Shown: positions 1-25,696, counted from the stretch's first letter. The stretch is 64,000 nt of DNA from Yuukianura sp. NJ FZ-2021 (GCA_046563655.1 JAJCTO010000010.1:930001-994000), one strand, 5' to 3'. Notes: generated from the sequence alone by a model not told the origin. A program made the numbers and translations.

Positions 1-338
1 TCGCGTTCTAAGGGGAAGGATGTGTGGAGATTCATATAGATGATGGATTGAGGGCCACCGTCTGGACTACAGCCAACGTGACTTTCTTGCGTGTGCTTAT
101 ACATCATGGCCAATGTCCAGTGGGTTAGTTGGTTGGTATTATTGATAGGATATTTGTCCAGGGAAAGTTGTTGGGATTTTTCAACCGAAGGCGGATCCTC
201 AATCAAAAGTTGGTGGAGGTCCGCGTCGGTATTATTGAGTAGGGCTACCAATTGGTTGTCATTCACGGCGATGATCTTAGCGCGGCAAACGGTAACACAC
301 AATAGGGTGATGCCAAGAAAGATGTTTGAGAAGGCCAT
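1..338 (-). CDS. Env-like paralog 4, partial (runs off window; not in the ORF track)
   Basis: Hand translation from ATG at 338 is open to the edge: MAFSNIFLGITLLCVTVCRA-KIIAVNDNQ...THWTLAMM...VGCSP. It has a signal peptide and the WTL motif shared with paralogs 2 and 3 (IWTLG). A pyrimidine-rich AG acceptor lies just upstream. Confidence 0.6.
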   Translation of the reverse strand, partial: MAFSNIFLGITLLCVTVCRAKIIAVNDNQLVALLNNTDADLHQLLIEDPPSVEKSQQLSLDKYPINNTNQLTHWTLAMMYKHTQESHVGCSPDGGPQSIIYMNLHTSFPLER

Positions 339-596
339 TGTGTACTTAAAAGAAAATGATTCACATAATTAAGACTAAGTTATCACATACACTAAATTGT
401 ATACTAAAGAATTTGAAAACCCGAGAAGGAAAATATGACCTATCAGCAATAGAAAAGGAAAAAAGGTAGAGACTTGCCAATTGTCAGAAGTGGTGCTATT
501 GAAACCCAAATTTTGTTAAAAATATGGTTGAATAAACAGATTACATTGAACTAGAAAAGACTAAACAGTGTACGAAAGGTGTGTAAAGATAGTTGG

Positions 597-2159
597 TTAG
601 ATGTGGTTGAGTAGATCCGTCGAACGCGACTGAGCAGTCGTGATGACTGGTGGGTCCTTATATACCTGTTGCTGCTCAGCTTGATTACCTTCGACTTCTG
701 GGTGCGGTCGCGTTAACAAAACCTGATAGAAGTGGGGTTCAAAAAAGTGGTTCTGTGCTCGACGTGTAGTATGGGAGTCTGGAAATTCTGGTTCGGAATT
801 ATGGTCGTGTGCCGTCACCATGTGGTGGTTCTGTTCGAGTACGGCGGGATAGAAGGGTTGGCTGGCCTGCTCCAAAAGTTGATCATGGGCTCCCCTCATG
901 TCTTCCTCTCCCTCATGATACAGAAAAATCGGAGGTCTGGAGCCATTACGGTGTGTTGTGAGCCCTGAATCGATGCTGTAATTTGGATAATTGTCCCATT
1001 GCGGGGAAATCGCCCAAGGATTGAGGCTGAATCGCTCCGGGTTTCCGCCAAAATTGTGAGACGAAGTTTTGGGGGTGACAGTTTCCTTATCAGCAGTTGG
1101 GACATATTCCCAATCCTGATCGGCTTCATTGGTATGGTACTGGACGGTGTGGGGTACGGATCCTGTCTCACAAGAGCTAATGTGTAAAATTTTTAAAAAT
1201 GACTGGCGTCCAAGTCGTACAGTTTCATACAGATGACGAAACTTCATATCGATGTGAAATTTTGCGGTGGTGTCAATTGTATCTTGTGTGGATGTATCCA
1301 ACTGGTTCGTCTCTTCGACTATTCCGCGACAAAGACCGAGTCTCGCTCCGCATGTGTCCACTTTGGTGTCCTGGTAATCCTGGACACTTAATCCAAATTC
1401 TGGACAAATGAGACTAGTGGGATTAATGTAGCATTCCGATGCTACTCGTTTCTGGAGCGTGCAGTTGGTATTCGCCTCGCCGTAGATTCGCCAAATAACG
1501 ACTCCGGTGGACGAGTAGCAAACATGGGAATCAAAAGGACAGTCGTTTTGTAAACCTTGTACATCGTGTGACCGAATAAATCCTGTGTATTGGTCATAGG
1601 AAATCTGTATTTCGGTGACGAAGTAGTTGACAATTCGATATCCCCAAGCTTTGGATGATCGGAACTGAGTGTCATTTGTTAAAAGTAGATTCTTTGTGCC
1701 ACGAGTGGTTTGGTTGATGGTAGACAATGGCCATCCCAGTGGATCAAATCCAGAGTTGATGAGATGAGCGCATTGATGCGGTTGTAAGTCGTCGGGTTTG
1801 GAAATGACAGTAGTTTTAAATGGCATCAGACTACTGGGCGTGCGAATGACCTCTGTTGTTTCCTTGACGCAGTGGTAGGCAGTAACACTGCGGGATGGGT
1901 GTTGAGTGCTCCAGAAAGCAGCGGAAACTAGAATGGAGTTCGAAAGTAAGTATGGGCAGGAGTCTGGCCTGGATTTCAAGACCCCCAGTGTCCAAATCCG
2001 GGGAGGCGGAGTAGGCTCCGTAGTAGTACTGTCAAGACGTTCGTTAATGTGTAAGATGTGATTTTCAGGATCAACATGCACCGCCAGGGCTCGGGTATCC
2101 GCTGTACTCCAACGGTACCAATTGCTAAGCACAAAAAGGGTAAGTAGTAACGGCGGCAT
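597..2159 (-). CDS. Env-like paralog 3: secreted, TM-less class III fusion-protein homolog
   Basis: Probable ATG at 2159 (MPPLLLTLFVLS signal peptide). The Cys pattern matches env: AYHC, QCAHL, VNYFVTEIQI, CPFDSHVCYSSTGVVIW, CTLQKRVASECYINPTSLICPE, helix HIDMKFRHLYE...SSC. The C-terminus is polar with no TM. Confidence 0.75.
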   Translation of the reverse strand: MPPLLLTLFVLSNWYRWSTADTRALAVHVDPENHILHINERLDSTTTEPTPPPRIWTLGVLKSRPDSCPYLLSNSILVSAAFWSTQHPSRSVTAYHCVKETTEVIRTPSSLMPFKTTVISKPDDLQPHQCAHLINSGFDPLGWPLSTINQTTRGTKNLLLTNDTQFRSSKAWGYRIVNYFVTEIQISYDQYTGFIRSHDVQGLQNDCPFDSHVCYSSTGVVIWRIYGEANTNCTLQKRVASECYINPTSLICPEFGLSVQDYQDTKVDTCGARLGLCRGIVEETNQLDTSTQDTIDTTAKFHIDMKFRHLYETVRLGRQSFLKILHISSCETGSVPHTVQYHTNEADQDWEYVPTADKETVTPKTSSHNFGGNPERFSLNPWAISPQWDNYPNYSIDSGLTTHRNGSRPPIFLYHEGEEDMRGAHDQLLEQASQPFYPAVLEQNHHMVTAHDHNSEPEFPDSHTTRRAQNHFFEPHFYQVLLTRPHPEVEGNQAEQQQVYKDPPVITTAQSRSTDLLNHI

Positions 2160-2245
2160 AGTCTTTCTGCATGCCACGGAGTTGAGTGTGAAGCGTTGGT
2201 GTCGCGAAAGCAAACTAACCGGAGGTTGGAGAGAGGAAGAAGTAT

Positions 2246-3253
2246 TTAACACTTTTCGAGTGGAACAGCGTGGATGACTGCAGGGGATAAATGCTGTAAA
2301 CTGGCATGTATGCGGGAGAAGTTAGTGTCAATTTGAAACTGGTCCAGACTGGAAGGACTGGGTGGGCTAGAGGGCTGTACGATGAGTCGAACAAACATAG
2401 GCCGACTGGATAACGGAGAAGATTGTAGTGCTGTTACTGCCACTGAAGATAAGGGGCAATAGATGGTGTGAAGCTGAACCAAGCAGAGGTGATCTAGGTG
2501 AAGATCTATCTGGCACTGTTTTCGTTGCCATGGCGCGGGTGTAGGTGAGACGCGGTTAAACAACACTCCATTAGGAAAAGGACAAATTGCTTGAGTAGTA
2601 CTACAATTAAAGATCGTAGTGTTAGAGGACGGGAGCACTAATGTGGAATTAGAAAAACGGTGTACGGTAGGAAGAACGAATTGTAAATGAATATCTTTGT
2701 ACACCGCTTTACTGCGTTGTTGGCTGTCGAATTCTGTTTGCAGGATTTGACTTCTGTCCTGGAAATGAAGGAGGCGATTTTGTGGCTTCACCCAGGTGCT
2801 GTATACGGGGGATAGGCTGCTGTGATTGTGGATTACACCAGGTGGCAAAATGTCATCAGAGATTATTGAAAGTGGGTTTCCATTCAGACTTTGAAACGTG
2901 TGGAGGGCATGCCAACAGTAATCAACGGGAATATTCTCGGGGGGATGTTCGTGGAAAGTGTGCACAATATGACCAGTAGAATTTCGTTCGATGGTGGTTA
3001 ACGTGTACGTACAAACGTACGCCCCTTGGGAAGTAAAAGACGGTGTAAATTTGATGATTCGTAACGTGGCGACATAAGTGTTGGCTAACAAAAAAGTTCG
3101 CGGGCTATGCAAATGGTAGGCTTTGCCGAGGGTCCAAATGGGTTCTGTATGCTGGAGATGGAAACGAGAGAATGCTAGACCGTACGGGACATAGGAAAAA
3201 CAGATATAGATTGTCGGTAGAAGGAAAAAATACTCGTAGGATAAAGTAAACAT
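2246..3253 (-). CDS. Env-like paralog 2: short secreted class III fusion-protein homolog
   Basis: Hydrophobic N-terminus. AYVCTYTLTT, YCWHALHTFQSLNG, CSTTQAICPFPNGVLF and CQIDLHLDHLCLVQLHTIYCP align with the env N-terminal half. The ORF ends around the central helix with no TM. Confidence 0.72.
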   Translation of the reverse strand: MFTLSYEYFFLLPTIYICFSYVPYGLAFSRFHLQHTEPIWTLGKAYHLHSPRTFLLANTYVATLRIIKFTPSFTSQGAYVCTYTLTTIERNSTGHIVHTFHEHPPENIPVDYCWHALHTFQSLNGNPLSIISDDILPPGVIHNHSSLSPVYSTWVKPQNRLLHFQDRSQILQTEFDSQQRSKAVYKDIHLQFVLPTVHRFSNSTLVLPSSNTTIFNCSTTQAICPFPNGVLFNRVSPTPAPWQRKQCQIDLHLDHLCLVQLHTIYCPLSSVAVTALQSSPLSSRPMFVRLIVQPSSPPSPSSLDQFQIDTNFSRIHASLQHLSPAVIHAVPLEKC

Positions 3254-3322
3254 AAAATAGGAAGTGTAGGAAGTTCCGATACGCGAGTCGTCTGGAAATA
3301 GTGTGATGGTGATAGGGGAGGC

Positions 3323-6181
3323 TTATTGTAGCTGGGGGTGTCCCGTCCAGAGAAAGCCGGAAAAGGGGGCCTGTTCCTGTTGGTTCACCGGATAGTAAAC
3401 TTGTCCCGCGAGAACTGCAGTTCGACCAGCCAGGGTGGAAGTGTACTCAGGGTTTGGATGAGATAAAGACTGATACGGTGGTAAAAAAGCATCCTCTTCT
3501 GTTTGTACCTCCTGATCATCTCTATTTGGGGCTGACGTCTCGAGATAATTCATTTCTATGGCGGCGACTTGATGATGGGTCCTGGGAGGAGTTGAGTGAC
3601 GGCTACAAATGTGTCGCCAGACTCTCCTCCCTGCGTGCATAATGTTTTGGTTGTACCGAACTGCACCGTACAACACTAAAATGAAAACAGTTAACGTCAG
3701 GAGGCCTGCGACTACGTTGGTTGCCCACCGTTTAATGGGGTCAAGGGTCCAGCTCTGTACGGCATCAGCTACTTGCTGTTGAGGCTCTGACCATTTTTGC
3801 CCTTGCATCCGCGCTTTAAAAACGTTGTCCACCGTGATTGGAGCCCGAAGTTGTCGTAGTATCGAGAGGAGTGACTCGGAACCCGTCGCTTGCCGTACTG
3901 CAATTGTGCCTGGATTTGAAAACGTAATGGCGGACAGCGGTTGATTCTGAACTTTATTAGTAAATGGAAGAGGTAAAACCGGCATTTGAATGGCAGTGGT
4001 AGTATCGTTGTTGAGAAGAAGCATTTTGGATCCGATATTGAAATAAAATGGGACCCGGTCTTCGCATGGGATAAATTCTGGTTCCAATGTTATGTGTCGA
4101 GAGAGTTGATTCAGATATCCGTCGACTTTCTGGTGATGGTAAAGAAATGTGATGGGCATATTCAAGGTACAATTTCCGTCTTCGTTTTGGGGTCGAAAGT
4201 GGTAGGAGTCAATTTCCTGGCATCGTGTCAGGGAGATGGCATCGCCATGTAATTTGGAAATGTAACGTTGATCTTTTAGTAATAGTCGAGCCACCACATT
4301 GGGATCGTTTTGTTCGGCTAGGTACGTCGCGACGCTGAGGATGGACTGTTGGTTGATACATGTTTGAAATACGACATTTTGAATGGCGTAGGTGACATTG
4401 TTGCGCAGCATATCGTAAAGATATTGTAAACGGCCATTTACGTGCGAGGCGACCAGGAGAGTGTCTTCGGTTGGTATGGGAGGCGGCCGTGGGGAGGTGG
4501 AAGAAATCATGTGTAAAATATCCTCATCTGTACCTTGATAGATGAGTGAGCCTTTGTAAGGGTACCGATGGGGCGGTGTTGGAAATTGGGGAAATGGGGT
4601 TCGAGACTCTGGTTCGGGCCTAGGACGTGCAGGTGGTGAACCCGAAACAACTGGCTTAGAAGAGGAATACGTGTGTACTGGTTCTATAGGTGGTGGGTTG
4701 ACTGTACTGCGTTCTGCCGAAGGAGATGTAATGAAGGTTGGTTTTGGGGTAGTTGAAGGAATAGTAGATGATGGCTCGTCAGGATTTGAACCCATCCATT
4801 CAGTTTGAATCGCAAGTTCTTCCTGAGGAGAAATCCTGCCCGCCGTCGGATTGTGACGAGTCGATTCGTCTTGTGCCGGTATGTGCGGTTTTAATGTGTG
4901 CGTTAGGGGAAGGTGTGTATGAAATCTGTGATTTTCCAGAGGTATTGGAATCGCAATGGGTAAGGAACCACTTTGGTCAATGTCCAGAATAGTGTCAGTA
5001 GTAGTAGAGGATATAGCTGGAATGGAATTAAGAGTAGAAAGTGAGTCAAAGGAAGTGGAAGGCCGAGATGTAGTCGAAAATGGTAACGCCTTTGGGCCAG
5101 GACCCAAATTAGTGCTGTAATCCATAATGAGAACATCCAGCGGATCTGTTGGAGCTGCTGTGGGTTGTAACTTGGGGAGGGGTGGTGCTCGTCTCCCCGG
5201 TCCATATCGAGTATCGGAAATAATAGAGAAGTCGTTAGTGTGTAGTGTGTCTCGTCTCTGGCGTGGGTATCGGTCAGCTAAGAGATGGACTCGTGTGGCT
5301 CGTTCGAAGTCTTCGGTACTGGACAGTGGAATAGGGAAGCTATCTGCGTGTACTGGTGAATACATGGCACCTCCTGCTCCGGTTCCCATCAACAAGTCAC
5401 AGTAGGGAATAGAGCGTATATTTGGAATGCTCATCGTAATTTCCGGGCATGATAAATGGTTTTCATTAGAAAGGATACAATCAGTTTGGAAGGCTTTTTG
5501 TATACGGCACGTTTTGAACAAATTACTAGACCAGACGATAACTGACCCCAAAATGCCAGGACAACTTTCCGCAGTGTAATCACATGAGGCAGCTAAAGGG
5601 ACTGGTGCGACAATACTAGCATCGAAGTTGCTGGCTGTGATGGTGATCGAAGAATAATAGAAATTGGTTACGCTTTTGGTTACAGTTTTGGGCCAAACGT
5701 AGTCAATGTCCACCACATGGGAGGTGCCCCAAAGGCCATCAGCAAGTGCTGTCATTGCTGATCCATCCGGAGATTTGGTAGTCTCAACCATTTTCATACA
5801 TTCGTCCCGTGTGACAACGCGTGGTTCCTCCCAGGAGTCCCGGGAGTGACTCAGCCAAAAGAAGTAACTTCGGGTTTCAGTAGTTGTGGTTGCCTTACAC
5901 AGCCATGCTCGCACAGAATGGCTGTTGGGGTTGTCGACCCATACCGTGATTGGCACAATCCGAGTCGGAGTAACAAGCTCAGCCAATTCGCATGTAGGCA
6001 TCTCGGGAAGGCGATAAGTAAGTGATCCAACGTTAGGGTCACAGAAGTAGAGTGTTGGTTGTTTCGGAGCTAAAGATGAAAAATAAACCCGATGTAACGC
6101 CTCATCTTCGGCAGAAGGGAGCGCACCGTGAATCGTGGAGAGGTGTAGAAGAAGAAGTAACTCGAAGAACAGAAGTTGCAT
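3323..6181 (-). CDS. env: Envelope glycoprotein, class III (herpesvirus gB-like) fusogen
   Basis: Signal peptide; aromatic putative fusion loops (SYFFWLS, DYVWP); furin site RYPRQRR; S/T/P-rich insert; gB-like motifs RLQYLYD...TC, ARLLL...LHGDAISLTRC, CTLNMPITF...GYL, FIPC...FYF; C-terminal TM VVAGLLTLTVFILVLYGAV. Lies directly 3' of pol. Confidence 0.85.
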   Translation of the reverse strand: MQLLFFELLLLLHLSTIHGALPSAEDEALHRVYFSSLAPKQPTLYFCDPNVGSLTYRLPEMPTCELAELVTPTRIVPITVWVDNPNSHSVRAWLCKATTTTETRSYFFWLSHSRDSWEEPRVVTRDECMKMVETTKSPDGSAMTALADGLWGTSHVVDIDYVWPKTVTKSVTNFYYSSITITASNFDASIVAPVPLAASCDYTAESCPGILGSVIVWSSNLFKTCRIQKAFQTDCILSNENHLSCPEITMSIPNIRSIPYCDLLMGTGAGGAMYSPVHADSFPIPLSSTEDFERATRVHLLADRYPRQRRDTLHTNDFSIISDTRYGPGRRAPPLPKLQPTAAPTDPLDVLIMDYSTNLGPGPKALPFSTTSRPSTSFDSLSTLNSIPAISSTTTDTILDIDQSGSLPIAIPIPLENHRFHTHLPLTHTLKPHIPAQDESTRHNPTAGRISPQEELAIQTEWMGSNPDEPSSTIPSTTPKPTFITSPSAERSTVNPPPIEPVHTYSSSKPVVSGSPPARPRPEPESRTPFPQFPTPPHRYPYKGSLIYQGTDEDILHMISSTSPRPPPIPTEDTLLVASHVNGRLQYLYDMLRNNVTYAIQNVVFQTCINQQSILSVATYLAEQNDPNVVARLLLKDQRYISKLHGDAISLTRCQEIDSYHFRPQNEDGNCTLNMPITFLYHHQKVDGYLNQLSRHITLEPEFIPCEDRVPFYFNIGSKMLLLNNDTTTAIQMPVLPLPFTNKVQNQPLSAITFSNPGTIAVRQATGSESLLSILRQLRAPITVDNVFKARMQGQKWSEPQQQVADAVQSWTLDPIKRWATNVVAGLLTLTVFILVLYGAVRYNQNIMHAGRRVWRHICSRHSTPPRTHHQVAAIEMNYLETSAPNRDDQEVQTEEDAFLPPYQSLSHPNPEYTSTLAGRTAVLAGQVYYPVNQQEQAPFSGFLWTGHPQLQ

Positions 6182-9300: not shown

Positions 9301-11143
9301 TAATTAAATCATCAATGTATAGTACGTTATGAACCATCAAGGTGTCGCCTAGAACCATATACATACAGCGCGTAAAGGATTGGGGCGCAGTGCTAATTCC
9401 AAATGGAAGGTATTTGAAGGCAAATGTACCTTTAGGTGTACAAAAACCTAAATATTGAATACTATCGTCTGCAACGCGAATTCCCCAATATCCTTTCTGC
9501 AAATCACAGGTTGAATAGAAAGCGTGCCGAGTTTGTAACCATTCTAAAATAGCTTCCACACTAAGCATTGGAAACTCGATGGGAGCAATAATGGAATTGA
9601 GTACAGAGTAGTCGACACAGAAACGATAAGATTTAGTGCCATCGGGCTGAGTATGCCCTGGGACTAACACGGTACGTGAGACGTAATTGGTATTACATGG
9701 TACTATCCGTTGGTGTTTGAGTAATTCGTCAATTTGTTTGTTTTCGAACGCTGTCATTTCTGGCGTTCGCCGAGCTGGTTGGTTTCTGAAAGTATGCGCG
9801 TTAGGGCGAAGAATGACGTGATGTACGTAATTTTTAATTTCACCGATTTCTTTCTGATAAGCAAAAACATCTTTGAACTCAACCAAAAGGTCCTGTAACT
9901 GCACCTTTTGAGTTGAGTCTAAATCTGGGTTAATTCGTGCAATTATACGATTCACATGTTCCTCCATCAATTTTGGTGGTAAGTCGAAAATACTAAAAGT
10001 CGGTAGAGTCTCATCAATCCTTTGCTCGTCCATACTGGGAATGGATTCCGTTGTGGCTGCGTTAAGATTCACCAACGTGGAAAGACCGTGTGGACTCTGT
10101 AACTCACTGGGGAGGTGCGGACCGTCGCGCCAGTGCTCTTCCGTATCCTGGCCGTGGATATCGGAAAAGGTTTCATTGCAAATCGCGTTGCAATCTTCCC
10201 GGGGAATAAACTCTTCGCTGTCTGTCGACAAACACGATTCAGGGACCCTTGTATAAACCATGTTTGAAGTTTCAGCGGTACACTCAAGAAACTCTGTGAT
10301 ATGTGGCTCATGATCATCATCATTGTGGGTCATCATGCTCGTGTTCGGTTCAAAACCATGTAGGTTAGGAGTTACAGATCGACCAGCTGCGGATTCCGTC
10401 GAACCAGCATCCTGGGAGTCACAACCCACATGATTTTTAAAAGGTACCTGAGGGGAACCAGAGCATGGGAAAAAGGGGAACAGCCTGGGCTGTGTAACTT
10501 TCTTGTCAACAATTTTCAACGTAAAAACGGCACATCGGAGTGAAGCTTCGTTATCGCGTAAGGGAATCATTTGTATTATTGTGCCTTTCCAACTGATAAT
10601 TAAACGGTCGAAATCGATTATAACACGTTGGTTTCGTAGGAAATCGTTTCCCAGTAGGACTTGTAGAGCGAAATTTTTTACAACAACCATGGAGTGAAGT
10701 ACCTTTTGTGCATCAATTTGTATAGAAATGTCAGCCATTCCGAGTGAGGACGTAAGGGTGTCACCAATACCTTTCAGCATGACTGTGCGAGCCATCGGCT
10801 GAATACTACTATTGTTAACTAACTGTGAACTAATTACGCTAACTTCTGCCCCTGTATCCAACATTATTTCTGTTTGGTGTTCGTCGGCATAACCACATAC
10901 TTTCAGAAGACCATTCGTCCCCATCTGCAAAACAAACATGGAATTCGTGTCATCGGTTTGGAGAACGGGAGCTGTGTATGTAGTGGAAATTGCGTTGATG
11001 GTCAATGGCTGACTTATGGAGTGTAGCTGGTGTTGAGAGAATTGATCAGTGGGTCGGTAGGGATAGCATTGGGTTTGCGGCTCTGTGGTGATGGAAGGGA
11101 CGGATGGGGGGTGGCCGCATACCCCGTCCCTTGGTTGTTTTTT
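6320..11143 (-). CDS. pol: Ty3/Gypsy Pol polyprotein (PR-RT-RNaseH-IN plus C-terminal extension), entered by -1 frameshift
   Basis: LDTGAEVS protease; RT motifs RFCVDY, DLQKGYW, LPFGISTAP, YIDD; RNase H LYTDAS/KEMYA/TDS; integrase HHCC, SDILGP, TDNGS, AER, GSY. The frame is uninterrupted. Confidence 0.95.
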   Translation of the reverse strand, partial: KKQPRDGVCGHPPSVPSITTEPQTQCYPYRPTDQFSQHQLHSISQPLTINAISTTYTAPVLQTDDTNSMFVLQMGTNGLLKVCGYADEHQTEIMLDTGAEVSVISSQLVNNSSIQPMARTVMLKGIGDTLTSSLGMADISIQIDAQKVLHSMVVVKNFALQVLLGNDFLRNQRVIIDFDRLIISWKGTIIQMIPLRDNEASLRCAVFTLKIVDKKVTQPRLFPFFPCSGSPQVPFKNHVGCDSQDAGSTESAAGRSVTPNLHGFEPNTSMMTHNDDDHEPHITEFLECTAETSNMVYTRVPESCLSTDSEEFIPREDCNAICNETFSDIHGQDTEEHWRDGPHLPSELQSPHGLSTLVNLNAATTESIPSMDEQRIDETLPTFSIFDLPPKLMEEHVNRIIARINPDLDSTQKVQLQDLLVEFKDVFAYQKEIGEIKNYVHHVILRPNAHTFRNQPARRTPEMTAFENKQIDELLKHQRIVPCNTNYVSRTVLVPGHTQPDGTKSYRFCVDYSVLNSIIAPIEFPMLSVEAILEWLQTRHAFYSTCDLQKGYWGIRVADDSIQYLGFCTPKGTFAFKYLPFGISTAPQSFTRCMYMVLGDTLMVHNVLYIDDLIMGSDSWANHLIDLRRTFERLRAYGVKLAIHKCYFGYFEVPLLGLLVNREGIRHNPEKLKAIQQIPYPTTVKKLQRILGSFNWFRRSIPNFSSLTQPLYQLLRKDKPFKLDKIHEDRIDEIKKVLASPPLLHWFDRNRETRLYTDASDIGIGGILIQVTVDDLEVPVAYHSSLLKGRQLDFPAFMKEMYAIVTCCSVFHMYLSDIKFTIITDSLPLVQAKSSLTPAKRWNRDLTKWAVIMMSYTYDLKYRRGRNMDFPDMLSRAPSDALTEDSAILPDALVLVHEIFLTQEGDAKSEWIGQTNSFDWKTLQLADAECTRIKTAWLKNDIHTRARYIIKDDILYDMRQGFSRVYVPVVQRKCILNEVHNNIISGHMGFTKTYQRLSRAYAWPSQKRDLLNHIQACEKCGKMKRHYGKIPGLMGELPVGNYPMECCASDILGPVAASNGFIYIINMVCLLTKYTILAPLKKIRSSDIAKFWENEVFLRFSTPRIIYTDNGSSYTSEFLKAFTQIFGTSIRHVTYYGKTGNSLAERTHSTCHSIIRSFVNDNHSNWSQNLRHVNFCLNTAPLKSLKYHSPHSLMFHQQPTFPYTSPLEIDNRDLYTKQQTFQELWSQIRTAIAEQQRKTQEQANKFRMPVFYKVGDKVRLTYPRQGERGQTTKWVAYYWGSYEVLQKLGPDVYLVKCSTTGRQFKTHVRRMRLISIDDVMETESLEIMVDPEQFLEDILCFDQLIEYIFQIQEWGHTTDILAGSTLPVHFFVLNAQVTDERIPDDQILQLCLTHKLTDIILINSAHPITFNVHKSNNTKVQVTTPEGLFIHQIVNPITLRKYIELRDKLLSTDVLIIGEGWEECFLSILLLSSMHHRMYISVFGGLMHILTQSKHKDRILTFLKTEQYGFQKQARCSGLSASDIALPEDKMENVESDLHKELWSEKGSHAIPMSSESPPPSPILNSSPPDSNPDKSEQQTPESCQLREISRPRRITKPPDRLTYSKF

Positions 11144-12621
11144 GGCTGAGCACGGCAATCTGCATCACTGTGTTTGGTTGACTGATGAAATGAACACCAA
11201 AGGCCATATGCTTCCGGTCGTCGACTCATGCCATTATCGCTGCGATGTCGAGAACAGTTCTGGTCGGAATGCCCACTAGTGTTATGATAGGTGCAAAACT
11301 GTCGCGGCGTGCCTGGGGCCCGACAGTTGCTCGCGATGTGGCCAAGCTGGGAACAGCGGTTGCAGCGGCGACGAGGGCACTGTGCACTAATATGATTGGG
11401 GTCGTTGCATACGTAACACCGCCGAGCTAATCCATTTCCGCGGGCTGGGTTACCCTGCCCACCACCACGGGATCGTAACGGCTTCGAATATCCCCCAACT
11501 CGGGTATTTACCCCGAAGTGTTCAGCAGTGGTGTAATCTGGTGGCGTCGGTTGTGGCTGAAGAGAAGTAGATGTGCCCTCGTTGTGTTGCTTAACAATGT
11601 ATGTATGCATCTCTTCGATGATGCGTCCAAATTTATCCAATTGCTCTGTCTGTCCCGCCAGGACCGCTGGAGCTTGGGTCATAACATTGACATCTTTCTT
11701 GTGTAAAAGTAGCTCATTTGTTTCTTCAATTGATTTCATCGCTTTTAAGAACTCGTCGATACTTTGCGGCTTCTGTGCTCCAAGAGCTGTCAAATTGGAT
11801 GGACGTAAATTGCGGATAAGCCAACGTACTTGGCGGGATTCTGGCATATCTGGGTCCATCTGTCGAAGGACATTGGTCAGATCGTAAGTATATTCCGTAG
11901 CAGATTCGTTCAGATGTTGACGTCTATTAATAACTTTTTGTTCAGCTGACATAGTACTAGTGTTGCCAAATGCTTTGATGAGAGCTTGTTCCACCATGCC
12001 GTAGTCAACTAACAGGGCGGGGGCTGGTGGTGATGTTGAACATCGAGTGGATTCCAAGAACGAAAAAAGCCAAGCTTCGGCAGTACCGGTTAAATGATTA
12101 CTCAGCAAAATCGGCCATTCAGATCGTGGGATTGAGTTCCCGGTCATCGCTAATTGGAACTTGGTGAGGTACCGCATAACATCCTCTCCAGGTTTGCCGC
12201 TGAACGTCGGTACCTTAATTTTATAATGTGTTTTGCCGGAGTCGGACTTAGCTCCGACCGACGTTGACGCTTGGGACATTGTGATTGGAAGATTGTGTAA
12301 ACCTTGGAATGGTGTTGTAGGGAATGGTAATGAAGTGGGGATGTGCGTAGGTGATTTGGGGTCACTGAGGGTGGATGGAAAGGTTACTTGAGGGAGAGGT
12401 AGCGGTGAAGGGATGTAGGGGGGTGGGTTCGAGGGGTTAAGTGAGGTTTGGGAAGTGGCTTTCGGGAGAGGTGGGGCGCTAGGAATAGTAGACGGCAAAA
12501 CTACCCGAGGTTGTAAGTTCAGTTTCCCCTTGTGTTGTGAAAACGCGGGAGTTTGTGATTGTTCGGTGTTAGGATGAGGAGGAGGTGATGGGACAGAGGA
12601 CCGTGTAGTTATCTTGGGCAT
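11014..12621 (-). CDS. gag: Gag with Pro-rich N-terminus, capsid domain and four zinc knuckles
   Basis: Capsid start KVPTFSGKPGEDV; two CCHC knuckles (CYVCNDPNHISAQC, CNRCSQLGHIASNC) and two CHHC knuckles (CTYHNTSGHSDQNC, CSFHQSTKHSDADC). Overlaps pol. Confidence 0.93.
   Translation of the reverse strand: MPKITTRSSVPSPPPHPNTEQSQTPAFSQHKGKLNLQPRVVLPSTIPSAPPLPKATSQTSLNPSNPPPYIPSPLPLPQVTFPSTLSDPKSPTHIPTSLPFPTTPFQGLHNLPITMSQASTSVGAKSDSGKTHYKIKVPTFSGKPGEDVMRYLTKFQLAMTGNSIPRSEWPILLSNHLTGTAEAWLFSFLESTRCSTSPPAPALLVDYGMVEQALIKAFGNTSTMSAEQKVINRRQHLNESATEYTYDLTNVLRQMDPDMPESRQVRWLIRNLRPSNLTALGAQKPQSIDEFLKAMKSIEETNELLLHKKDVNVMTQAPAVLAGQTEQLDKFGRIIEEMHTYIVKQHNEGTSTSLQPQPTPPDYTTAEHFGVNTRVGGYSKPLRSRGGGQGNPARGNGLARRCYVCNDPNHISAQCPRRRCNRCSQLGHIASNCRAPGTPRQFCTYHNTSGHSDQNCSRHRSDNGMSRRPEAYGLWCSFHQSTKHSDADCRAQPKNNQGTGYAATPHPSLPSPQSRKPNAIPTDPLINSLNTSYTP
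11095..11143 (-). promoter_or_regulatory. -1 programmed ribosomal frameshift signal
   Basis: A AAA AAC heptamer (11143-11137) in the gag frame, followed by a 9-bp stem AAGGGACGG/CCGTCCCTT. Pol is in the -1 frame. Confidence 0.88.
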
Positions 12622-13114: not shown

Positions 13115-13164
13115 CTAGGTTGGGTTAGGTTAGAATAGGTTAGGCTAGGTTAGGTTAGGTTAGG
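13115..13164 (+). repeat. Short degenerate (TTAGG)n tract
   Basis: ctaggttgggttaggttagaataggttaggctaggttaggttaggttaggg; TTAGG is the common arthropod telomeric repeat. Confidence 0.7.
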
Positions 13165-14004
13165 GTAATCCCATTACGACCTTGCCTAATGTTCCAGTTT
13201 TGAGCCCCAAAATAGTGCACTGAATTGATGTTCGTAGTTTGTGGAGTAAAATAGGTTAGGTTCCTAAAGATGCACCTAATATATTGTCGGTGTTGCCATG
13301 GCAATGTAGTATTAGCGAAAAGAGCGTAAATCAACCGGCATCAAATCAGTGATATCGAACTGAGATTTGTGCATGATCAACAAATGTGAACACTGAGCAG
13401 GATGGGTCGAATATGCCTTCTTTTAAATCGAAAACTCTCATTCAGGATACCATTCTCAACCGCTGATTCACCTTTCCCCCCGGAAACAACTGTCTCACGT
13501 TCTCAATATCAATAATCTCAATAACAGTCAACGAACCCTAATCTTTAACTCTACTTCAACCGTATTTCACCGTATTTCCAATTTCTAAATTCTAAATTCC
13601 AAATTCCAATTCCAAATTCCACTTCACCCTAAATCTAAACTAAATGTAAACGAAGCTGTAACTTGATAGGGCAATTGCCAATGTCAACTAAACTAATGGA
13701 TTGATTGATTAAGTCGAAGACGGTTCAGGAAGAAGCACAGTGTGTTAAACTAAGTGCATAAGTTAATCAGTCGAAAATCGCTTGTTTATAATGATGTCAT
13801 GCAAAGGTAAATGTTGACTCTGCTGGACTCTGTTGACATATTATGAATTTAAGTCAGCATTTCTCCCCTCTGAACAGGCTGAATTTAACAACGTAATTAG
13901 ACTAGTCTATAGTATAACTTAAACTAGTATAAATTGAACCGCTACCTAACTGTCAGAAAATGACCCGATCAGAACTCCGTTGGTCATAAACACTTCAAGG
14001 GAAG

Positions 14005-14263
14005 GCGAAACCAAAACTGTTTTGCGAAGCCACGATACTGCGGTTACGTAAAGTAGCCGCCAACTTCTACGTTGTTAGTTTAGTACTTTGAGTACAATGG
14101 AGACCTAATGAAAACATTTGAGTCTTAGATAACCCCCCGACTGCGATGGGGCTTATGGTTCATTGAAAAGGGTCTGAAACAATGTTACGGACAGACGGAC
14201 AGACAAAGTCGTATCAATAGTCCTCTTCAGCACGTCTACGACGTGCGTCTCCAGGAGACCAAA
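14005..14263 (-). mobile_element. Possible non-autonomous Helentron/DINE-like (HINE) fragment
   Basis: Minus strand starts TTTTGGTCTCC, then a hairpin GCACGTC-gta-GACGTGC and a GTCTGTCCGTCTGTCC microsatellite. Boundaries are uncertain. Confidence 0.35.
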
Positions 14264-15613
14264 AGCAAAATGCCCAAGTCAACGTTTATGTATCTCTTGT
14301 AATCATAAGTGTGCCTCATGCAGGAAATTAGGCGTTGAGTGCGTATTAAAGCCATGTATGTTCGGCGTGCGACCATTTTTCGAGAGTGAAGTTGAACTGC
14401 GGGTGTCAGCAGGGCGGAAGGTGCTGATGTGGAAAATGGGAGACGTGGAAGAACACGCATCTCCCAGCAGGTGCACGAGGTGGGGATCCAAGTGCCAGTG
14501 AGGCCCCGAGCGTGGGTCGGAATACGATTTAGGTCAAGCGTCTGCGACACGCGGGGCAGAGTGCGATTTTGGCTGTGCGACGTCGGTGCGTGGTTGCGAC
14601 CACCGCACGCGGAAGCGGGTGCGATCTTGGCCATGCGGCCACGGTACTCGAGGGTATGGCGTGATACTTATTGTAAGTTAACAAAGCAAAAATACCCCTC
14701 ACCAAGCTGGGCTTATACAAGCAAATCTAAGGCGGATTTAAGTCAGAATAAACACCCTCAAAACAGGCGGAGTTGAAGATCAGAGTTACAATGGCCATCA
14801 GAAAATGAGGATCTCGAGACAACTGGGTTGTTTCTCAAAAATATGTGGAGTATAATGTTGAACTATGCGGCGAAATGAGAAGTCAGTAACGCTAAGCCGC
14901 CGTCCCCTACTACGTTGTAGAGTGAATGATTTGAGTGCAAAGTTACATCCCTAGGCTGCTGCATTAAATCCTTACTTAAGGAAGCCAATTAGTAAAATAA
15001 AACCAGGTTGAGATTAACAAGAAGGCGGGATGCGTCGGACGTGAGGTGGTGCGTGGTGTGCCGTGTTGTGTCGTTTGCGAGTAGGCACCCCCCATGGTAT
15101 TTACATGCGACAACGAGCGTAGTGTAAATCAGAGGAATAGTGGAGACAGCTGCATCCAGATAAGCAAGAGGTAGCAATTTAAATGCAAGTTAAAGGATGT
15201 ACTGTCGTTATCGTGAAACCATGACCCTCAGTCACACAGTGGGCGATATAAGATTGTGGTTATGCAGAAGAATCTGTCGTTATCAACAGGATGACCCAGG
15301 GTAAGGTTCATGTTGAAGAGACACTCATTTAAGCGGAAATCAAGGCAAGTGGTTTGAATGGTTTTATCTTTCCTGTGATATTGTAGCCCCATTGGAATTC
15401 GAGAGCGAAAGGAAACAATGTTCGTGGCAGTCGGAACTGATATGTGGGCATGACGTAATGGATTTTATTCTAATTATGGGAAGAAGCATAAATCGATACG
15501 GGAAAGGCTAAAATTAGCATATTTATAACCACTCGTAGGTATTAAGAGCATGGTGCACAAAACTGGAAGATGAAGACTGTAAGGACGACTGGGATAGGAA
15601 AGGGTAGGTCACA

Positions 15614-17410
15614 TTAAATTCGGGGGCATTTGATCATCCGGTCACAAATTTGGCCCTCGATTACCCGTTTTAATACCGGCCTCGATGCGGTTGCTACCTG
15701 GTACCGCTCGAGGCGGTGTCTGTCCGCTTGGGAAAGCGGAGGTTGCAGATGGTTCAATTTAACGACTGCGTGTGGCATGCTGCGTTTGATCATTTGCGCT
15801 CCTTTAACAGTTAGTTGAGCACAGAAAATGGTTTCGAAGTAAGAAAGGTTGAGTCGAGTCGCGAGGGTAACAAGGCTTAAAGAAGAGAATCCATAACCTT
15901 TTAAAGTCAAATGACATAGCTGGGGACAATCTAACAGTCCAAAGTAAATGGCACAACTAGTCAGAAACTTGGAGCTCAAATACAGTTCCTTCAGTTGCAG
16001 GAGCTGGGAGAGTCGAGGGTTGTATTTATGTCGGTCTAATGAGTAAATTTGTCCGTCTGTCATGAGTTCCAGGGCGGTCTGCATCAGCTTCTGGTCGGTT
16101 CCAGTTATAGCTTCATCATCATAAAGGCCATCATTGGCTATCAGCGTGGTTAAATTAGGAAGGGACGTAATCACTGCTCGGAAGGCCTTGTTGGTCAAAA
16201 ACCGGATATTCAATGTGCGCAGGTTAGGAAACCAGGAGCCCCAGGTGCGTATAACGATTGGAAGAACCTTGTATTCGGGTTCAATTTGATCAATAAGTAG
16301 ACTGTGCAATGATATGTTGGGAGTTGGGGGATCACGGGAGTAGAAATGATTGCTTAGGTTACGCGCCTTCCGAAGTGTGAGAGAAAGCAAATTAGGGATT
16401 CGATGTATAAATTCCAGTACGTAGAGAGGGTGATAAGAAATGAATTCGAGGGAGGTGAGGTGAGTGAAATTTTGAAGATATTTAAAATGTTCTAGCCTGC
16501 TAACATTAGCTCCGGTTTGATAGTCGACAGCATATGTGAAGTCCATTATTAGTGTCGTCAGAGTGTGACAGTAACTATTGACAAGTGTGTGAATGGAGAA
16601 AGCCGATTGCCTTTGTGTTATTACCCAACTTAATTTAGTTAGTGGGAAGGATCGGTGCTTGAGTTGGTCCGGGTGTGTCCAAGGGTGGAATGGTAAATCA
16701 AGGTGCTGGAGGCGTGGAAAGTAGTGGTCTTCCATACTTAAAACAGCGTCGAGGATAGGTGATGTGTTGGCAGAAGCTCGTATTGGCTCCTCCACGATAT
16801 GGCCGAAGAGATCCGTATGCGTTGGCTGGTATGGATTTGTGGAAAGGAATTCCACATTGGGCATAGAAGAGAAGAGGAAATGAAGGAAATTGGTTTGTTG
16901 GGTCCGTTGGATTAGAGTAAAAATTGTATCATAATCTAACGTAATACGTACAGTGTGAACCTTATTTAAAATTCTTCCAGATGTCGGCACTTTGGTTTTA
17001 AAGATATTAGGTGTAGGGAGAGTGCCGAGTGTGAATGATAGTTTGGTTAAATTAGGCAAAAAGTGAAAAGCTAAAGTTGGTATTAAGACAGTCCACGTGG
17101 GCTTAACGAGATCCAATGTTGTAACATGGATGCCGATGGTTTGGGCCAGGCTGATTTCGAAGCGTAAGCCAGACAAGAACCGGAGGTTGCAGGGTCTCGG
17201 GTGGGTACGTAGGAGGTCACGTGCTTGGTCCTCATTACTAATGCAAATGGGGTGGGCTCGCCTACTCAAGACGCGACTAACTTCCTTATTCCAGAGCTTC
17301 GAAACTTGCCGGCATGATTTTAACTCGGCCATGGAAAAGTACATCAGTAGTATTTCCAACATCTCTGGAACCCGGAGGGGGTTTGTTTTTCCTTTATGTA
17401 CCACTTTCAT
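15614..17410 (-). CDS. F-box / leucine-rich-repeat protein (598 aa, intronless CDS)
   Basis: N-terminal F-box (NPLRVPEMLEILLMYFSMAELKSCRQVSKLWNKEV) followed by many LxxLxxLxL repeats (LPNLTKLSF, FPRLQHLDL, FPNLRTLNI, CPQLCHLTL). Acceptor TTTCTACAG just upstream of the ATG. Confidence 0.88.
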   Translation of the reverse strand: MKVVHKGKTNPLRVPEMLEILLMYFSMAELKSCRQVSKLWNKEVSRVLSRRAHPICISNEDQARDLLRTHPRPCNLRFLSGLRFEISLAQTIGIHVTTLDLVKPTWTVLIPTLAFHFLPNLTKLSFTLGTLPTPNIFKTKVPTSGRILNKVHTVRITLDYDTIFTLIQRTQQTNFLHFLFSSMPNVEFLSTNPYQPTHTDLFGHIVEEPIRASANTSPILDAVLSMEDHYFPRLQHLDLPFHPWTHPDQLKHRSFPLTKLSWVITQRQSAFSIHTLVNSYCHTLTTLIMDFTYAVDYQTGANVSRLEHFKYLQNFTHLTSLEFISYHPLYVLEFIHRIPNLLSLTLRKARNLSNHFYSRDPPTPNISLHSLLIDQIEPEYKVLPIVIRTWGSWFPNLRTLNIRFLTNKAFRAVITSLPNLTTLIANDGLYDDEAITGTDQKLMQTALELMTDGQIYSLDRHKYNPRLSQLLQLKELYLSSKFLTSCAIYFGLLDCPQLCHLTLKGYGFSSLSLVTLATRLNLSYFETIFCAQLTVKGAQMIKRSMPHAVVKLNHLQPPLSQADRHRLERYQVATASRPVLKRVIEGQICDRMIKCPRI

Positions 17411-20400
17411 GGTGTGGCTGCTGTAGAAAGTTAAAACTCGGTCAGAATAAAAAAGTGTAGGAGAATGTGGGAGTCTACATCATAAAGTAAAACGCAAAGG
17501 AATTCGGAGTGTCGATCATGTTACACGATGGTGTGACATGGACGGAGAAAAATGAGCATTATATGTGAGACTACTATATTTCTTGTGTGTTTCCCATTAC
17601 AGGATGGACAGAAACTCGGGTTGGAACTCTACCTGGCGGTCGATCCTGCGCTGATGATAGAGATGTGAAAGAATGCTAGCATGATGTCTAAACAACGTCC
17701 AGAGTGTGACTTTAATAAGTAAGTTGGGGTGGTGAGAGGGAAGGTTTAGTATGGGGCCGTGTTGGAGAAAAGGTCAACTGCAGACAGGCTTTGTAATAAT
17801 AGTTTGTGGTCTGTTATAGATTACCCTGGGAAGACGGATAGCTAAGGTCAAGCGGACCTCGCGACCCGTGTCGTAATGGTAGAAATGATGGGGAAATTGC
17901 GAAGGACTGTTAATAAATTGGAAGAAGGAAACAAGAGCGATAACCAAAACCGCCTCGGTGCCATGGCCGGATGCCTTAGAAGTACTGAAATATATATGCT
18001 AGCACTGAGTCAAGACGGCTACAATGTATTGTTCAAGGTCTATAGATATCAACGAGAATAGAAAGCTGACTAGCGTTTAAGCCTCGCCTTGACCTCGGGA
18101 TTTGTTGAGACGAGAGAAAATAGAATAGTAAGTGAAAAGTAAACATGGGGAGAAAGATGGTGAAAGTACTGCAAAATGCATTGAAATAATAAAATAGTGA
18201 CTGCAGTCCTATGCCCTTCGATTCACACTTCGAAGGACGGCAGCAGGAATGTACAGGAAGAGGGACATTCGCGTAAGCGGATTTTCCAGCATACGTCAAT
18301 AGTGATGGTTGAATGTATTGTGGATAAAACTTACTTGCGTTGGTGGTTATGTGTACTGTTAATTGTGAAACTCCCCAAGTGGATAGAATTAGCTAATCGG
18401 ATCGGGTTACGGACTGATGGAAGTTAAGGCAGAGACAGATGCACGAAGCTAAGACTATGCTCAACTAATCCACTCCTGCGCTGCGGAGGCCATTATAATT
18501 ACGTTTGATGGACGCACAGCGACTCGACATGGGGAAGGAGATGGAGGAATAAAGGGAGGGTGGTTTGTTTTGTATAATGTGCGAAAATTAGGCATCGACC
18601 CTGTGTTTGGGTGAGAAGGAGCGTGACGACTGAATGGGAAATTCCCACATCCAAGTTAACGAGGACAAGGGCAGCAGCTTTTTACATTGTTTTCGTGATG
18701 GTCTATGTTTGGCGTGGTGTGGCCAAAATCTGAAAAACCAGTGGACACGCACGCCCTCCGCAATATAAAAGTGTCTATGAATATGCATTTTCGCTAAATT
18801 CACATGGACCGAGCGAAGCCGTGTCCATAAATGCGGAAATGAAGTTGTGCGATGTAACTACAAAGAAAACCTTCCAGATGACCTTGTGAATGAAAGAGGG
18901 GGACAAAAAATTGTTTGCAAAACAATGTAAGAATGAGCACAAGGAAATTATGTGCCAAGGTGAGCGTGTGCGCGCATGAGTAAAATTTGGCGTTATATCC
19001 CAATGAACTTGGGTGTTGTTGTGTCCAAAACCAGTTTTTGTGTCATGGTGGTGCCAAGTCACGCCATTGTTATTCTTCCGTCTGGGCTTGACCAAGGGAA
19101 CATGAGACAAGGTCGACGAGAATTACACTTCCTGGATCCATCAAGTAGTTGGATCTTTGTTGAAGACAAGGACACAAAAAATATGCGCAAAAAGAAAAAG
19201 AACCAACCGCTCAATTCTTCCTGGTTCTGGTGTCAATGGATACGCCAAACTGGACTATTTAAGCTGGGAGCAATGCATCTATGGAGTTTCTGTTGTCCTT
19301 ACAACTGACCATCTGCGGCAGCCATCAGATCTAGGTTCGGTACTTAACCTGGTCTAACCTAACACTTGTTCTGTGGTACGCCCTGTGTCTTGTTCAACAA
19401 AACAAAAAGCAACCCGAGGTAAGCAATTATACCCGCAAGAGAAAAAAAAATAACGTTCGTAGTGGGATAAAACAAGAGAAACACGTATTGAACCACATTC
19501 CGTAGACTGATTCGTGCGGTGAAAGTGAAACGAATCAAAGAATTAGGAAGCAAAGACAAGTAACAGAAATTAGAGTGCCGCAGCAAGGTTTGTAAAGAAG
19601 AAAATAGTTTCCCCTTCAACAGGTTAGGCAATAACTCAAGAGTTTTAATCTTTATTTCGAAATTAGCAAAACTTGGGTCATCGAGCCTTTCTATGGTAAG
19701 GATTTATATACAAGCAAATAGGATGGGAGGGAAATCAGAATTAAAAAAAAAAAAAAAATTGTTTGGACCGACTTTTCTCGTACACAGGACTTATGGCCAA
19801 ACCTATTAAAGCATGTCGTCGCCATAGAAACCTTGCTGTCGCAGTGTGTTAGTAAAAAGCGGAGAAAAGCTGAGTGAGTTGAATATGGGCCTATAATTAA
19901 TTTGTAGGACTAGGTGGCTCCGCTACCTTTTGTAGAACAATTTCTGATAACTACTGAAGATTAGGCATGTTTTAGAGTCAGGAGAAAGGTTTAAGATCAA
20001 CGTAGGTAGTCACCTAGAGCCTTCACATGTACGGGAGAGTATGGCATGACTTTGAAAGCGTTTAACCCTTTGAAAAGGTACAACGGATTTAAGAAAGTGA
20101 GGTATGAATTATCATTGTTGTGTAAGTTTCAGCGTGGGAAGCTGAAAGTTTGTTGATCCGTTGGGATCCACGCAGCCGCGTGTCGCAGAGTGTGATGCCA
20201 TTAATTATATTTCTAAATCCACTCACAAGGTCCATGTTTGTACTTGTATCAGCATCCCCAGAATTGAAAAAAGAGGGGGGTTTATGATTTTTTATGAAGG
20301 CAAGTGGAGTTATGTTGGAATTTCCCGTCTTCCTATTCAATCAAAGTGTGGAAACCATTCCTGTTGCAGTAAGGTTAGATTATCGTGCTTGTGCTAGCTT

Positions 20401-21234
20401 GGGGAAGAGTGATGTTGTATAGCAGCAATTGGAGAATTAATTAATGAATTGAATTTGAATTAATGGACGCATAATCAAAAAGTTGTATTATGACACGGTG
20501 CAACTAGTTAACGGTAAATAGAAACTTTCGCTACCGTATGGTTACAAGGACACTCAATAAACCGAGCCCAACCCGAGTGTTGTCTTAGGTTCAGTTTTCA
20601 GGGCTATTCGATCCATTACGGAGAAACAACTACTGTAACAATCATGCTGCTAGCAGTTATTAATCTGTAGATTACTGATTTGCTCAACGTGCTGCTGATG
20701 AAGTGAACCAATGCACGGGGCGTCTGTTGGGTTTTTGTAGTTTATTGCAAACTATGAGGGGCGCATCGAAGCGTAAAAGAGGAAACCAAATGCGAATGTG
20801 TGCGAGCGAAATGGATGACGTACTGATCAACCGGAATACGTGGGTTAAATGAGATTGAGACCTTCCCGAAAAGGTAACCAAAGTATTGTTCCCCTTTGTA
20901 GGTAGTCAAGCGACAGAATCACTGGCTGTAGTGCGGCTAGGGTGGCCTAACGCAACGCTACCCTCGCTGTACAATAACGTAAATTAACTGTCAACCCCTT
21001 AATTTAATCCAAAAGCGAGAACCGGTGTATAAAATAGCGTGTGCCGGTCTATGTGTCCGCGGTCGAGAGGATATATAAAACACTTAGACAATCCCGCTTG
21101 CGCAATAAAGTTGTGTGGGCTAGTCTGATTCAACAAAGTCTAACCTTTTGCCGAGTATGAGTAAAGAGCGACCAGTTGAATGACGAGTGGCAGTGCCTCG
21201 TTGTGACATGTTGTTTTATCGTGTTTAGATAGCA

Positions 21235-25110: not shown

Positions 25111-25249
25111 GTTACATTTAATTGCACGCAATATTTTTGTGTTAAAGTTGCGTCGCGGTTCGGTGGGGGTTCTAAGTAGATGGTGGTGGGTTTGTAGATT
25201 ACACAATGATAACAATTTTAATAAAGAAAAAAAAAAATTTTAATTCTAC

Positions 25250-25260
25250 CTTACCTTGTG
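25250..25260 (-). promoter_or_regulatory. Candidate major splice donor just downstream of the PBS
   Basis: CACAAG|GTAAG on the minus strand (intron starts at 25254), about 40 nt after the PBS. Confidence 0.55.
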
Positions 25261-25294
25261 CCGTAATATCACCTTTGAGCTGGGTAGAAAGTCA

Positions 25295-25312
25295 ATCCGG
25301 TTCGAAGGACCA
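25295..25312 (-). promoter_or_regulatory. Primer-binding site, tRNA-Tyr type
   Basis: TGGTCCTTCGAACCGGAT, 3 nt after the LTR end GTCACA. It is complementary to the typical eukaryotic tRNA-Tyr 3' end (...CCGGCUCGAAGGACCA) with one mismatch. Confidence 0.9.
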
Positions 25313-25315
25313 TTA

Positions 25316-25696
25316 TGTGACCTCTCATCCTGGGTGAACCAGGACTCAGGCCGCATACGTCGCCGCGTAACAGACGGACTACTGGCTGCTTGACCTCTGT
25401 GCCCAGGTCCGAACCCCACCGAGGTGGCGCAGGTCCTGGGTGCCAGCTCTACGGATCATGGCCGCAGAATATGGCTCAATGCCATCACAAAGGAAACAGT
25501 AAACGAAGGGAACGTGTGGCTACTCTCCTTTATTGCTTGTAGAATCTCCCTACTCCAGTAACTGGACGTCACCGTGACAGGCGCTGGGAAGAGGAGCTAT
25601 CTCGAGGACAACTCCTCCTCAACCGAGCGCTCTCTACTCACTGACTGACCATCGGGATATGACTGAGAACCTAGCCTCATCCCGAGTGCCGTCACA
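25316..25696 (-). repeat. Long terminal repeat (381 bp), 5' LTR of a minus-strand element
   Basis: 6-bp inverted termini TGTGAC...GTCACA; AATAAA at 25534-25529; immediately followed by the PBS. Confidence 0.8.

Follow-up and report, generated by a model that had tools for sequence, protein, structure and literature searches.

Ty3/gypsy retroelements that carry an envelope gene of the herpesvirus glycoprotein B (gB) type have already been described across animal phyla, under the name of 'ancient errantiviruses' (Chary & Hayashi, eLife 2026, PMC13524379). According to the methods described there, the survey accepted only pairs of long terminal repeats (LTRs) lying 5-14 kb apart, so that a unit of 25 kb would have escaped it. 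A first-pass annotation had proposed such a unit, one complex giant (>25 kb) retrovirus-like element, in a stretch of 64,000 nt from Yuukianura sp. NJ FZ-2021 (GCA_046563655.1 JAJCTO010000010.1:930001-994000), hereafter the window, within whose limits all coordinates are given. We find that this locus holds an intact Ty3/gypsy endogenous retrovirus-like element with a gB-type env, present within a larger, wholly amplified block of DNA. The giant unit itself is not established: the window contains no twin of the candidate LTR, most open reading frames (ORFs) of the gap between LTR and gag are antisense, foreign repeats are lodged in that gap, and the amplified block passes beyond the LTR. We give about an even chance to the reading in which LTR, gap and gag-pol-env form a co-duplicated composite block.

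The gag-pol-env block lies on the minus strand, that of the LTR, and the annotation was right that it is intact, gag, pol and env all being open ~12.7 kb downstream of the LTR. The gag gene (12621..11014, 535 aa) matches zf-CCHC (2.8e-07) and, below the cut-off, Ty3_capsid (9.4e-05). The pol gene, in the -1 frame relative to gag, is open from 11158, has its first ATG at 10939 and extends to 6320. A slippery heptamer, A AAA AAC (11143..11137), stands in the gag frame within the 145-nt gag/pol overlap; the 97 nt 3' to this site fold no better than shuffled sequences (z -0.98). Along pol, the Pfam matches are, in order, aspartyl protease (PR; 4e-08), RVT_1 of the reverse transcriptase (RT; 1.8e-17), RT_RNaseH_2 (2e-21), and Integrase_H2C2 (3.6e-14) and rve (9.1e-09) of the integrase (IN). 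The catalytic motifs are legible in the translation: DTG in PR, YIDD in RT, and HHCC together with the D, D and E positions in IN. A search of 5.8 billion proteins returned 75 matches to pol, the best sharing 31% identity and every one carrying Pfam domains of the Ty3/gypsy-type set. The order of the pol domains, the gypsy-type RNase H, the H2C2 integrase, the CCHC gag and the frameshift arrangement are all characteristic of Ty3/gypsy. BEL/Pao elements are also LTR retroelements of animals, but the gag-pol of the locus lacks their domains: Peptidase_A17, DUF1759 and DUF5641 are absent from 6320-12621 in a Pfam scan, whereas the control, a BEL/Pao ORF at 42407-47626 of the window, matches the three at 3e-44, 1.4e-34 and 2.1e-32, respectively. 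On these features gag-pol is assigned to Ty3/gypsy (Metaviridae), not to BEL/Pao. Two stretches of pol are without any Pfam match, a spacer of ~320 aa between PR and RT (residues ~110-430) and a C-terminal tail of ~430 aa past the integrase (residues ~1110-1539).

The ORF that follows pol (6181..3323, minus strand, 952 aa) has a signal peptide, a class III fusion core of the herpesvirus-gB/Monjiviricetes type and a C-terminal anchor. Its hydrophobic segments span residues 3-21, at the N-terminus, and 818-836, the membrane anchor. It matches the Monjiviricetes fusion glycoprotein family PF24664 at 3.4e-11 (42.3 bits, above the cut-off of 27) and the herpesvirus gB ectodomain PF00606 at 4.5e-08, below the family cut-off; gB accounts for 16 of its 16 PDB matches (best E 8.4e-04), in the central-helix region. 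By these matches the ORF is classed as a gB-type env. No related loci were found among viral contigs. Past env, still on the minus strand, come an ORF of 335 aa of the signal-peptide type (3253..2246), an env paralogue of 520 aa without membrane anchor (2159..597) and a further signal-peptide ORF (338..3) that exits the window at its left end. The 520-aa protein aligns with residues 69-270 of env (42/211 identical, E 6e-08), and the cysteines are conserved. Thus, of the 'multiple envelope genes' announced by the first reading, one full gB-type env and one truncated paralogue, corresponding to the N-terminal half of env without the anchor, can be retained, alongside two further signal-peptide ORFs. 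A second full, frameshifted gB gene to the left of env was also considered and rejected, the paralogy of the 520-aa ORF being all that is seen there. The anchor-less paralogue might act as a decoy or as a partner in receptor binding, or else be a duplicate in decay.

With the ancient errantiviruses, as described in PMC13524379, the locus shares the gag-pol-env order, the PR-RT-RNase H-IN succession, a gB-like class III env after pol, a multi-copy state and a tRNA-type primer-binding site (PBS) next to a TG...CA LTR. It departs from the elements described there in its pol, whose best match is at 31% identity and which contains long extra regions, in its env, residues 540-840 of which gave no match at E 0.001 or better in a word-indexed protein search, in the three extra signal-peptide ORFs past env, one of them the truncated gB paralogue, and in the distance of 12.7 kb between gag and the sole candidate LTR. 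The locus is therefore a very divergent member of the gB-type env-carrying gypsy group, the core of which is of a kind already known. What it adds to the group is a divergent lineage, an extra array of secretory ORFs including the anchor-less gB paralogue, and the immediate proximity of genes of the F-box-like, dUTPase and exonuclease-like types, kinds that planarian and rotifer retroelements have captured. The element would replicate like other env-carrying gypsy elements, with gag-pol produced through frameshifting and env presumably expressed from a subgenomic RNA.

The candidate 5' LTR (25696..25316, minus strand, 381 bp) starts with TGTGAC and finishes with GTCACA, so that the inverted termini reported earlier are present in the sequence, and it contains an AATAAA at 25534. 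Three nucleotides past its CA lies the PBS candidate TGGTCCTTCGAACCGGATT (25312..25294, minus strand), complementary to the 3' end of tRNA-Tyr(GUA). Bases 1-11 of the site are perfectly complementary to the final 11 bases of two 12-mers labelled Tyr_GUA in Supplementary file 1 of PMC13524379, and this 11-mer occurs once on the two strands of the window at up to 1 mismatch; the earlier identification of a tRNA-Tyr-type PBS is borne out to this extent. 'Tyr' is not among the tRNA types named in the element sheet of that paper. A tRNA scan detected no tRNA gene in the 64 kb. The splice donor announced earlier is also there, as the predicted, consensus-like AAG|GTAAGG on the same strand (25249..25256, cut at 25255/25254); close to it, the plus strand reads AATAAAG(A)11 (25220-25237). 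These features look like the true 5' end of an LTR element of the same strand. It is improbable, however, that LTR and PBS serve as the functional 5' end of a genomic RNA 25 kb long. From the end of the LTR to the gag ATG the distance is 12,694 nt. In the LTR-twin search, which was confined to the window, BLAST returned the LTR itself and matches of 20 nt at most, and the direct repeats of at least 25 nt within 1-35500 amount to one gene-cassette duplication and one 32-nt pair, the latter at chance level. The outer edge at 25696 may be misplaced, because contig depth remains high in the bin to its right and because a 6-bp inverted repeat is its sole support. A solo LTR with target-site duplication was ruled out, the 5 bases flanking the two ends being different and a PBS following. 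The first-pass annotation gave PBSs of the Tyr type as typical of BEL/Pao; none was found near the BEL/Pao ORF of the window.

The gap (12622-25315) was said to be filled by three substantial genes. One of them stands on the strand of the element, a 598-aa ORF (17410..15614, minus strand) resembling F-box and leucine-rich-repeat proteins, which is the only long gap ORF in this orientation; four others are antisense. The F-box resemblance comes from the ESM Atlas, where the top clusters are F-box proteins (score 0.96), while Pfam places F-box (E 0.026) and F-box-like (E 0.023) below cut-off. A sense-strand AATAAA is located at 15469, 145 nt past its stop. The antisense ORFs, on the plus strand, encode 319 aa (21235-22194; no family, F-box match at E 0.32), 147 aa (22552-22995), 106 aa (23066-23386) and a Cys-rich protein of 162 aa (24322-24810), the last three without family match. 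The 319-aa ORF is flanked by TATA-like motifs at ~21029 and ~21073 and by AATAAA at 22271/22299. Single-sequence AlphaFold2 models of this ORF and of the 598-aa one were unusable, with mean predicted local distance difference test (pLDDT) values of 32.6 and 35.3, respectively. Directly after the Cys-rich ORF, an open frame (24811-25107) gives a sub-threshold C2H2 zinc-finger match (E 0.022), and the two may be a single gene broken by a frameshift or an intron. Between gag and the F-box-like ORF lies a 1.4-kb patchwork of high-copy repeats (12886..14304). It includes a degenerate (TTAGG)~10 tract with a perfect right end (13115-13164), the only one of telomere type in the window, at 495 nt upstream of gag, with 8 overlapping matches where 0.06 would be expected; the tract could record the healing of an old chromosome end or the repair of a break. 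Further into the gap, a stretch of ~1.9 kb (19263..21155, plus strand) consists of a high-copy piece resembling a short interspersed nuclear element (SINE) with an A18 end (~19745-19763), followed by ~1.4 kb that are near single-copy. The scan of the gap covered 106 of the 110 stop-to-stop pieces of at least 50 aa, and 6 of the 106 gave sub-threshold matches to unrelated families.

Parts of 15701-25700 are contained in five public runs, none of which is on record as RNA. Four runs were compared over 6301-26300, as contigs in every case: X1 to X3 come from one sample of organism A, and X4 from organism B. The contigs listed are the longest pieces, beyond which there are a further 3541 pieces, 870 loose ends and 53 joints, and summed contig depth, the quantity given here for X1-X3, does not equal copy number. 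The bins of gag-pol have depths of 81-199 in X1, 101-163 in X2 and 31-77 in X3, and those of the gap are of the same order (85-178, 88-123 and 21-77 over 14305-18973; 89-382, 120-239 and 26-96 over 20975-24976). Depth falls to 28/50/0 (X1/X2/X3) in the bin 20308-20974, and the exact contig 18943-20785 has a depth of 17.9 in X1. It rises to 11,627-63,311 in X1 over 12304-14304, and to 1073/949/183 in the LTR bin (24977-25643), against ~80-200 internally; in X1 the LTR region is uneven, with 4247 at 25415 and 306 at 25489. Among the listed contigs of other copies, those of gag-pol diverge from the window by 1.7-3.7% (for example 168/5371), and those of the gap by 3.3% (16785-17737), 3.6% (15788-16287), 4.6% (16098-19262) and 3.4% (21182-23502); 22245-22866 is covered as well. 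In the same set, similarity ends at 19262 and at 21156-21182, loose ends fall at 12886, 12950, 13028, 13792, 13860 and 14006, and no contig spans the distance from LTR to gag. From organism B come fragments of gag-pol and of the junction near 25240, and gap pieces at 14864-16287, 17785-18179, 20243-20663 and 24313-25280. These data fit a co-amplification of the gap and gag-pol. A contig located outside the LTR (25884-26300) is 3.8% diverged, with a depth of 49.8 in X3, a run in which the gag-pol and gap contigs have 30.5-41.2, and at position 25944 the non-window letter makes up 154.5 of a depth of 167.9 in X1. The outer DNA appears to share this depth and divergence class, so that the amplification reaches beyond the LTR, and co-amplification is therefore no proof that a single retroviral unit ends there.

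Beyond the LTR the block runs into a plus-strand gene cassette (26475-29802) made of three genes: a 267-aa ORF without assigned family, a dUTPase ORF and a 475-aa ORF that encodes a DEDDy-like exonuclease. A second copy (31120-33258, plus strand), a tandem duplicate ~70% identical in DNA, ends at the junction with a 3'-truncated long interspersed nuclear element (LINE). The cassette paralogues are old and constrained, the proportions of nonsynonymous differences (pN) in the two pairs being 0.10 and 0.19 against 0.76 and 0.85 for synonymous ones (pS). The dUTPase ORF has an extra C-terminal domain; its best PDB match is the human dUTPase (6e-19), and it has no related loci in viral contigs and no match at E 0.001 or better in the word-indexed protein search. 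The 475-aa ORF has a coiled coil, and its own Pfam matches are PF01612 (E 0.033, below cut-off) and Rrp6 (0.087); the ESM Atlas gave no usable match. Two relatives were found among 1.84 billion representatives; the metagenome scan used a single protein as query. The nearer one, P0076 (E 1.9e-13), passes the 3'-5' exonuclease family PF01612 at 32.9 bits. In the alignment, a Cys occupies what we take to be the position of the first DEDDy acidic residue. The second relative lies on a 9-kb metagenome contig, L001, in which a dUTPase gene (Pfam 2.2e-29) and, after it in the same orientation, the exonuclease-like gene occupy 1280-3662, both broken; the 62 ORF pieces of its 9 kb include neither RT nor gag. 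Judged by gene order, the dUTPase-exonuclease pair is a conserved module, across distant genomes, because the adjacency recurs in this contig.

Giant size and captured genes both have precedents among retroelements. The planarian Burro/GYPSM1 and the plant Ogre elements, as described in PMC6431247, share with the locus a gypsy-type pol, a viral-type env, an accessory function linked to ubiquitination (here the F-box-like ORF) and a proposed size of more than 25 kb. In Burro, however, the extra domains are part of one huge polyprotein, with env in frame between gag and pol, whereas here they are separate ORFs, mostly antisense and upstream of gag; and the size of Burro was proven through LTR pairs in thousands of copies, while the window holds no pair (PMC6431247). 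The bdelloid rotifer elements Juno, Vesta and TelKA and the Terminons likewise associate a dUTPase and a DEDDy-type exonuclease, with a degenerate exonuclease motif, with a retroelement, and Terminons also contain short tracts of telomeric repeats and form arrays that include captured genes (PMC5408684, PMC6431247). In the rotifer elements, as presented in PMC5408684, the dUTPase is inside pol and the exonuclease is a sense-strand ORF3, whereas the locus has stand-alone plus-strand genes outside the LTR and a pol without dUTPase. An Athena/Penelope-type RT, by which a Terminon is recognized, is absent from the window ORFs scanned with Pfam. In the literature covered, open-access papers and bioRxiv, no description was found of a gypsy element with such a gene set.

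The composite reading is favoured because the 12.4 kb between the LTR/PBS and the element are a mosaic, in which genes with their own signals on both strands are interspersed with high-copy fragments, a telomere-type tract, a SINE-like insert and near-single-copy DNA, and because the multi-copy block runs beyond the LTR into the dUTPase/exonuclease cassette. The occurrence of plus-strand ORFs on both sides of the LTR counts in the same direction, as does a neighbourhood of LINE, two satellite arrays and a BEL/Pao element, settings in which block duplication is common. A repeat-rich, subtelomere- or heterochromatin-like block would have been copied several times as DNA, and would contain the env element in a copy that is 5'-truncated or lacks LTRs, together with an LTR/PBS remnant and an intronless gene island; the element itself would occupy the window from 1 to ~12,886 on the minus strand, its 3' end lying beyond. 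Several observations weigh against this account. None of the 106 gap ORF pieces matches an RT, integrase, protease or gag family, and hence no second pol remnant accounts for the LTR. No LTR or PBS nearer to gag was found, as the annotation had said, in a search made for repeats and the Tyr PBS and not for PBSs of other tRNAs. Gap and gag-pol contigs, among those listed, are alike in depth class and in divergence (3-4.6%). The F-box-like ORF has a third-position composition close to that of gag and env, and the segment 14301-19262 has the C-over-G sense-strand skew of the element. Sense-strand AATAAA is found once in the shared parts of the gap for 3.3 expected, a difference that is not significant. 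Two tests were set aside: AATAAA depletion as a sign of read-through was dropped, the counts being too small, and third-position composition as a sign of shared strand bias was abandoned, composition tracking each ORF's own strand. Several of the observations just listed are equally those on which a giant complex LTR retroelement would be built, with 25696..25316 as its 5' LTR and a 12.7-kb leader containing the sense F-box-like gene and the antisense genes, followed by gag-pol-env and the glycoprotein array. Such a unit would also explain why LTR, PBS and donor share the strand of gag-pol-env and why LTR depth is several-fold that of the internal parts. On this reading the LTR would be shared with an adjacent tandem copy, whose 3' part would form the DNA to its right, in a unit of at least 33 kb; just outside the LTR, the minus strand reads AAGCAGGGG (purines 8/9), which is compatible with a polypurine tract if internal sequence flanks both sides. 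Burro shows that sizes beyond 30 kb occur among gypsy elements (PMC6431247), rotifer LTR elements and Terminons carry dUTPase and DEDDy exonuclease as accessory genes (PMC5408684), and the survey of env-carrying gypsy elements would have missed giants through its 14-kb limit (PMC13524379). We nevertheless hold the giant unit to be unlikely. No second LTR is present in the window, a sense AATAAA comes right after the F-box-like ORF, very-high-copy repeats and a telomere-type tract separate that ORF from gag, ~1.9 kb are not common to the listed contigs of other copies, and the amplified block extends past the LTR; moreover, codon bias in the antisense ORFs goes with the strand on which they lie, and nothing points to a common mutation bias tied to one strand. 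Doubtful to a slightly greater degree is the full description of this kind, a tRNA-Tyr-primed gypsy element of 25 to at least 33 kb with an F-box-like gene upstream of gag, antisense clusters at both ends (dUTPase and exonuclease included), a gB env with an array of paralogous glycoproteins, and tandem copies sharing LTRs. Were the giant unit real, only one other animal retroelement of more than 25 kb would precede it, and none with clusters of antisense genes; it would matter for how large reverse-transcribed genomes can become, and surveys that limit LTR spacing to 14 kb would overlook its kind.

Two further explanations were weighed. LTR and PBS could be the element's own 5' end, an ordinary leader (~75 nt after the LTR and ~264 nt before gag) having been split by later insertions, and the dead copy then duplicated as DNA. 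The unique leader pieces, 25315..25240 and 12885..12622, indeed total ~340 nt, which is a usual leader length; the high-copy fragments start exactly at 12886, and A-runs of the type left by retroposed inserts are found at 25227-25237 and ~19745-19763. We regard this history as quite improbable, since gag, pol and env are still open despite ~3% divergence between copies, which suggests recent activity or selection, and since a contig of organism B spans 24313-25280, so that the junction at ~25240 is old; around the supposed inserts, no target-site duplication was recognized. It is more improbable still, to our mind, that 1 to ~33,258 is part of a larger non-retroviral island, similar to an endogenous large DNA virus or a giant transposon, into which the retroelement parts were inserted or recruited. 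Such an island would be in keeping with the higher GC content over 1-32 kb, with intronless ORFs on both strands, with the dUTPase-to-exonuclease order kept, in decayed form, in an unrelated metagenome contig, and with the age and constraint of the cassette paralogues (pN well under pS). However, the ORFs scanned gave no match to families of DNA polymerases, capsids, packaging ATPases or transposases, env occupies the exact position of a gypsy env, and the right edge, at ~33,258, truncates a cassette gene and a LINE without any clean terminus.

To the right of the cassette, the LINE (33169-35991, minus strand) comprises a coiled-coil ORF1, an endonuclease and the start of an RT that ends at ~33,258. 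This break coincides with that of the plus-strand exonuclease-like paralogue, which designates a rearrangement junction, not the edge of an insertion. An Rfam scan of 1-36000 found no family, hammerhead included. GC content is 0.41-0.48 over 1-32 kb, against 0.35-0.39 beyond. An assembly gap of 100 N (56182-56281) falls within the right-hand repeat region, outside the retroelement locus. The BEL/Pao gag-pol ORF at 42407-47626 is intact (1739 aa) and is flanked by two repeat arrays (36458-42149 and 48217-55925), with units of ~407-602 bp in at least 21 copies that are 67-100% alike. An 85-nt stretch found on both sides of this ORF (~42055-42140 and ~48240-48325) is common to the array units, and the two arrays may be expanded LTR-derived sequence.

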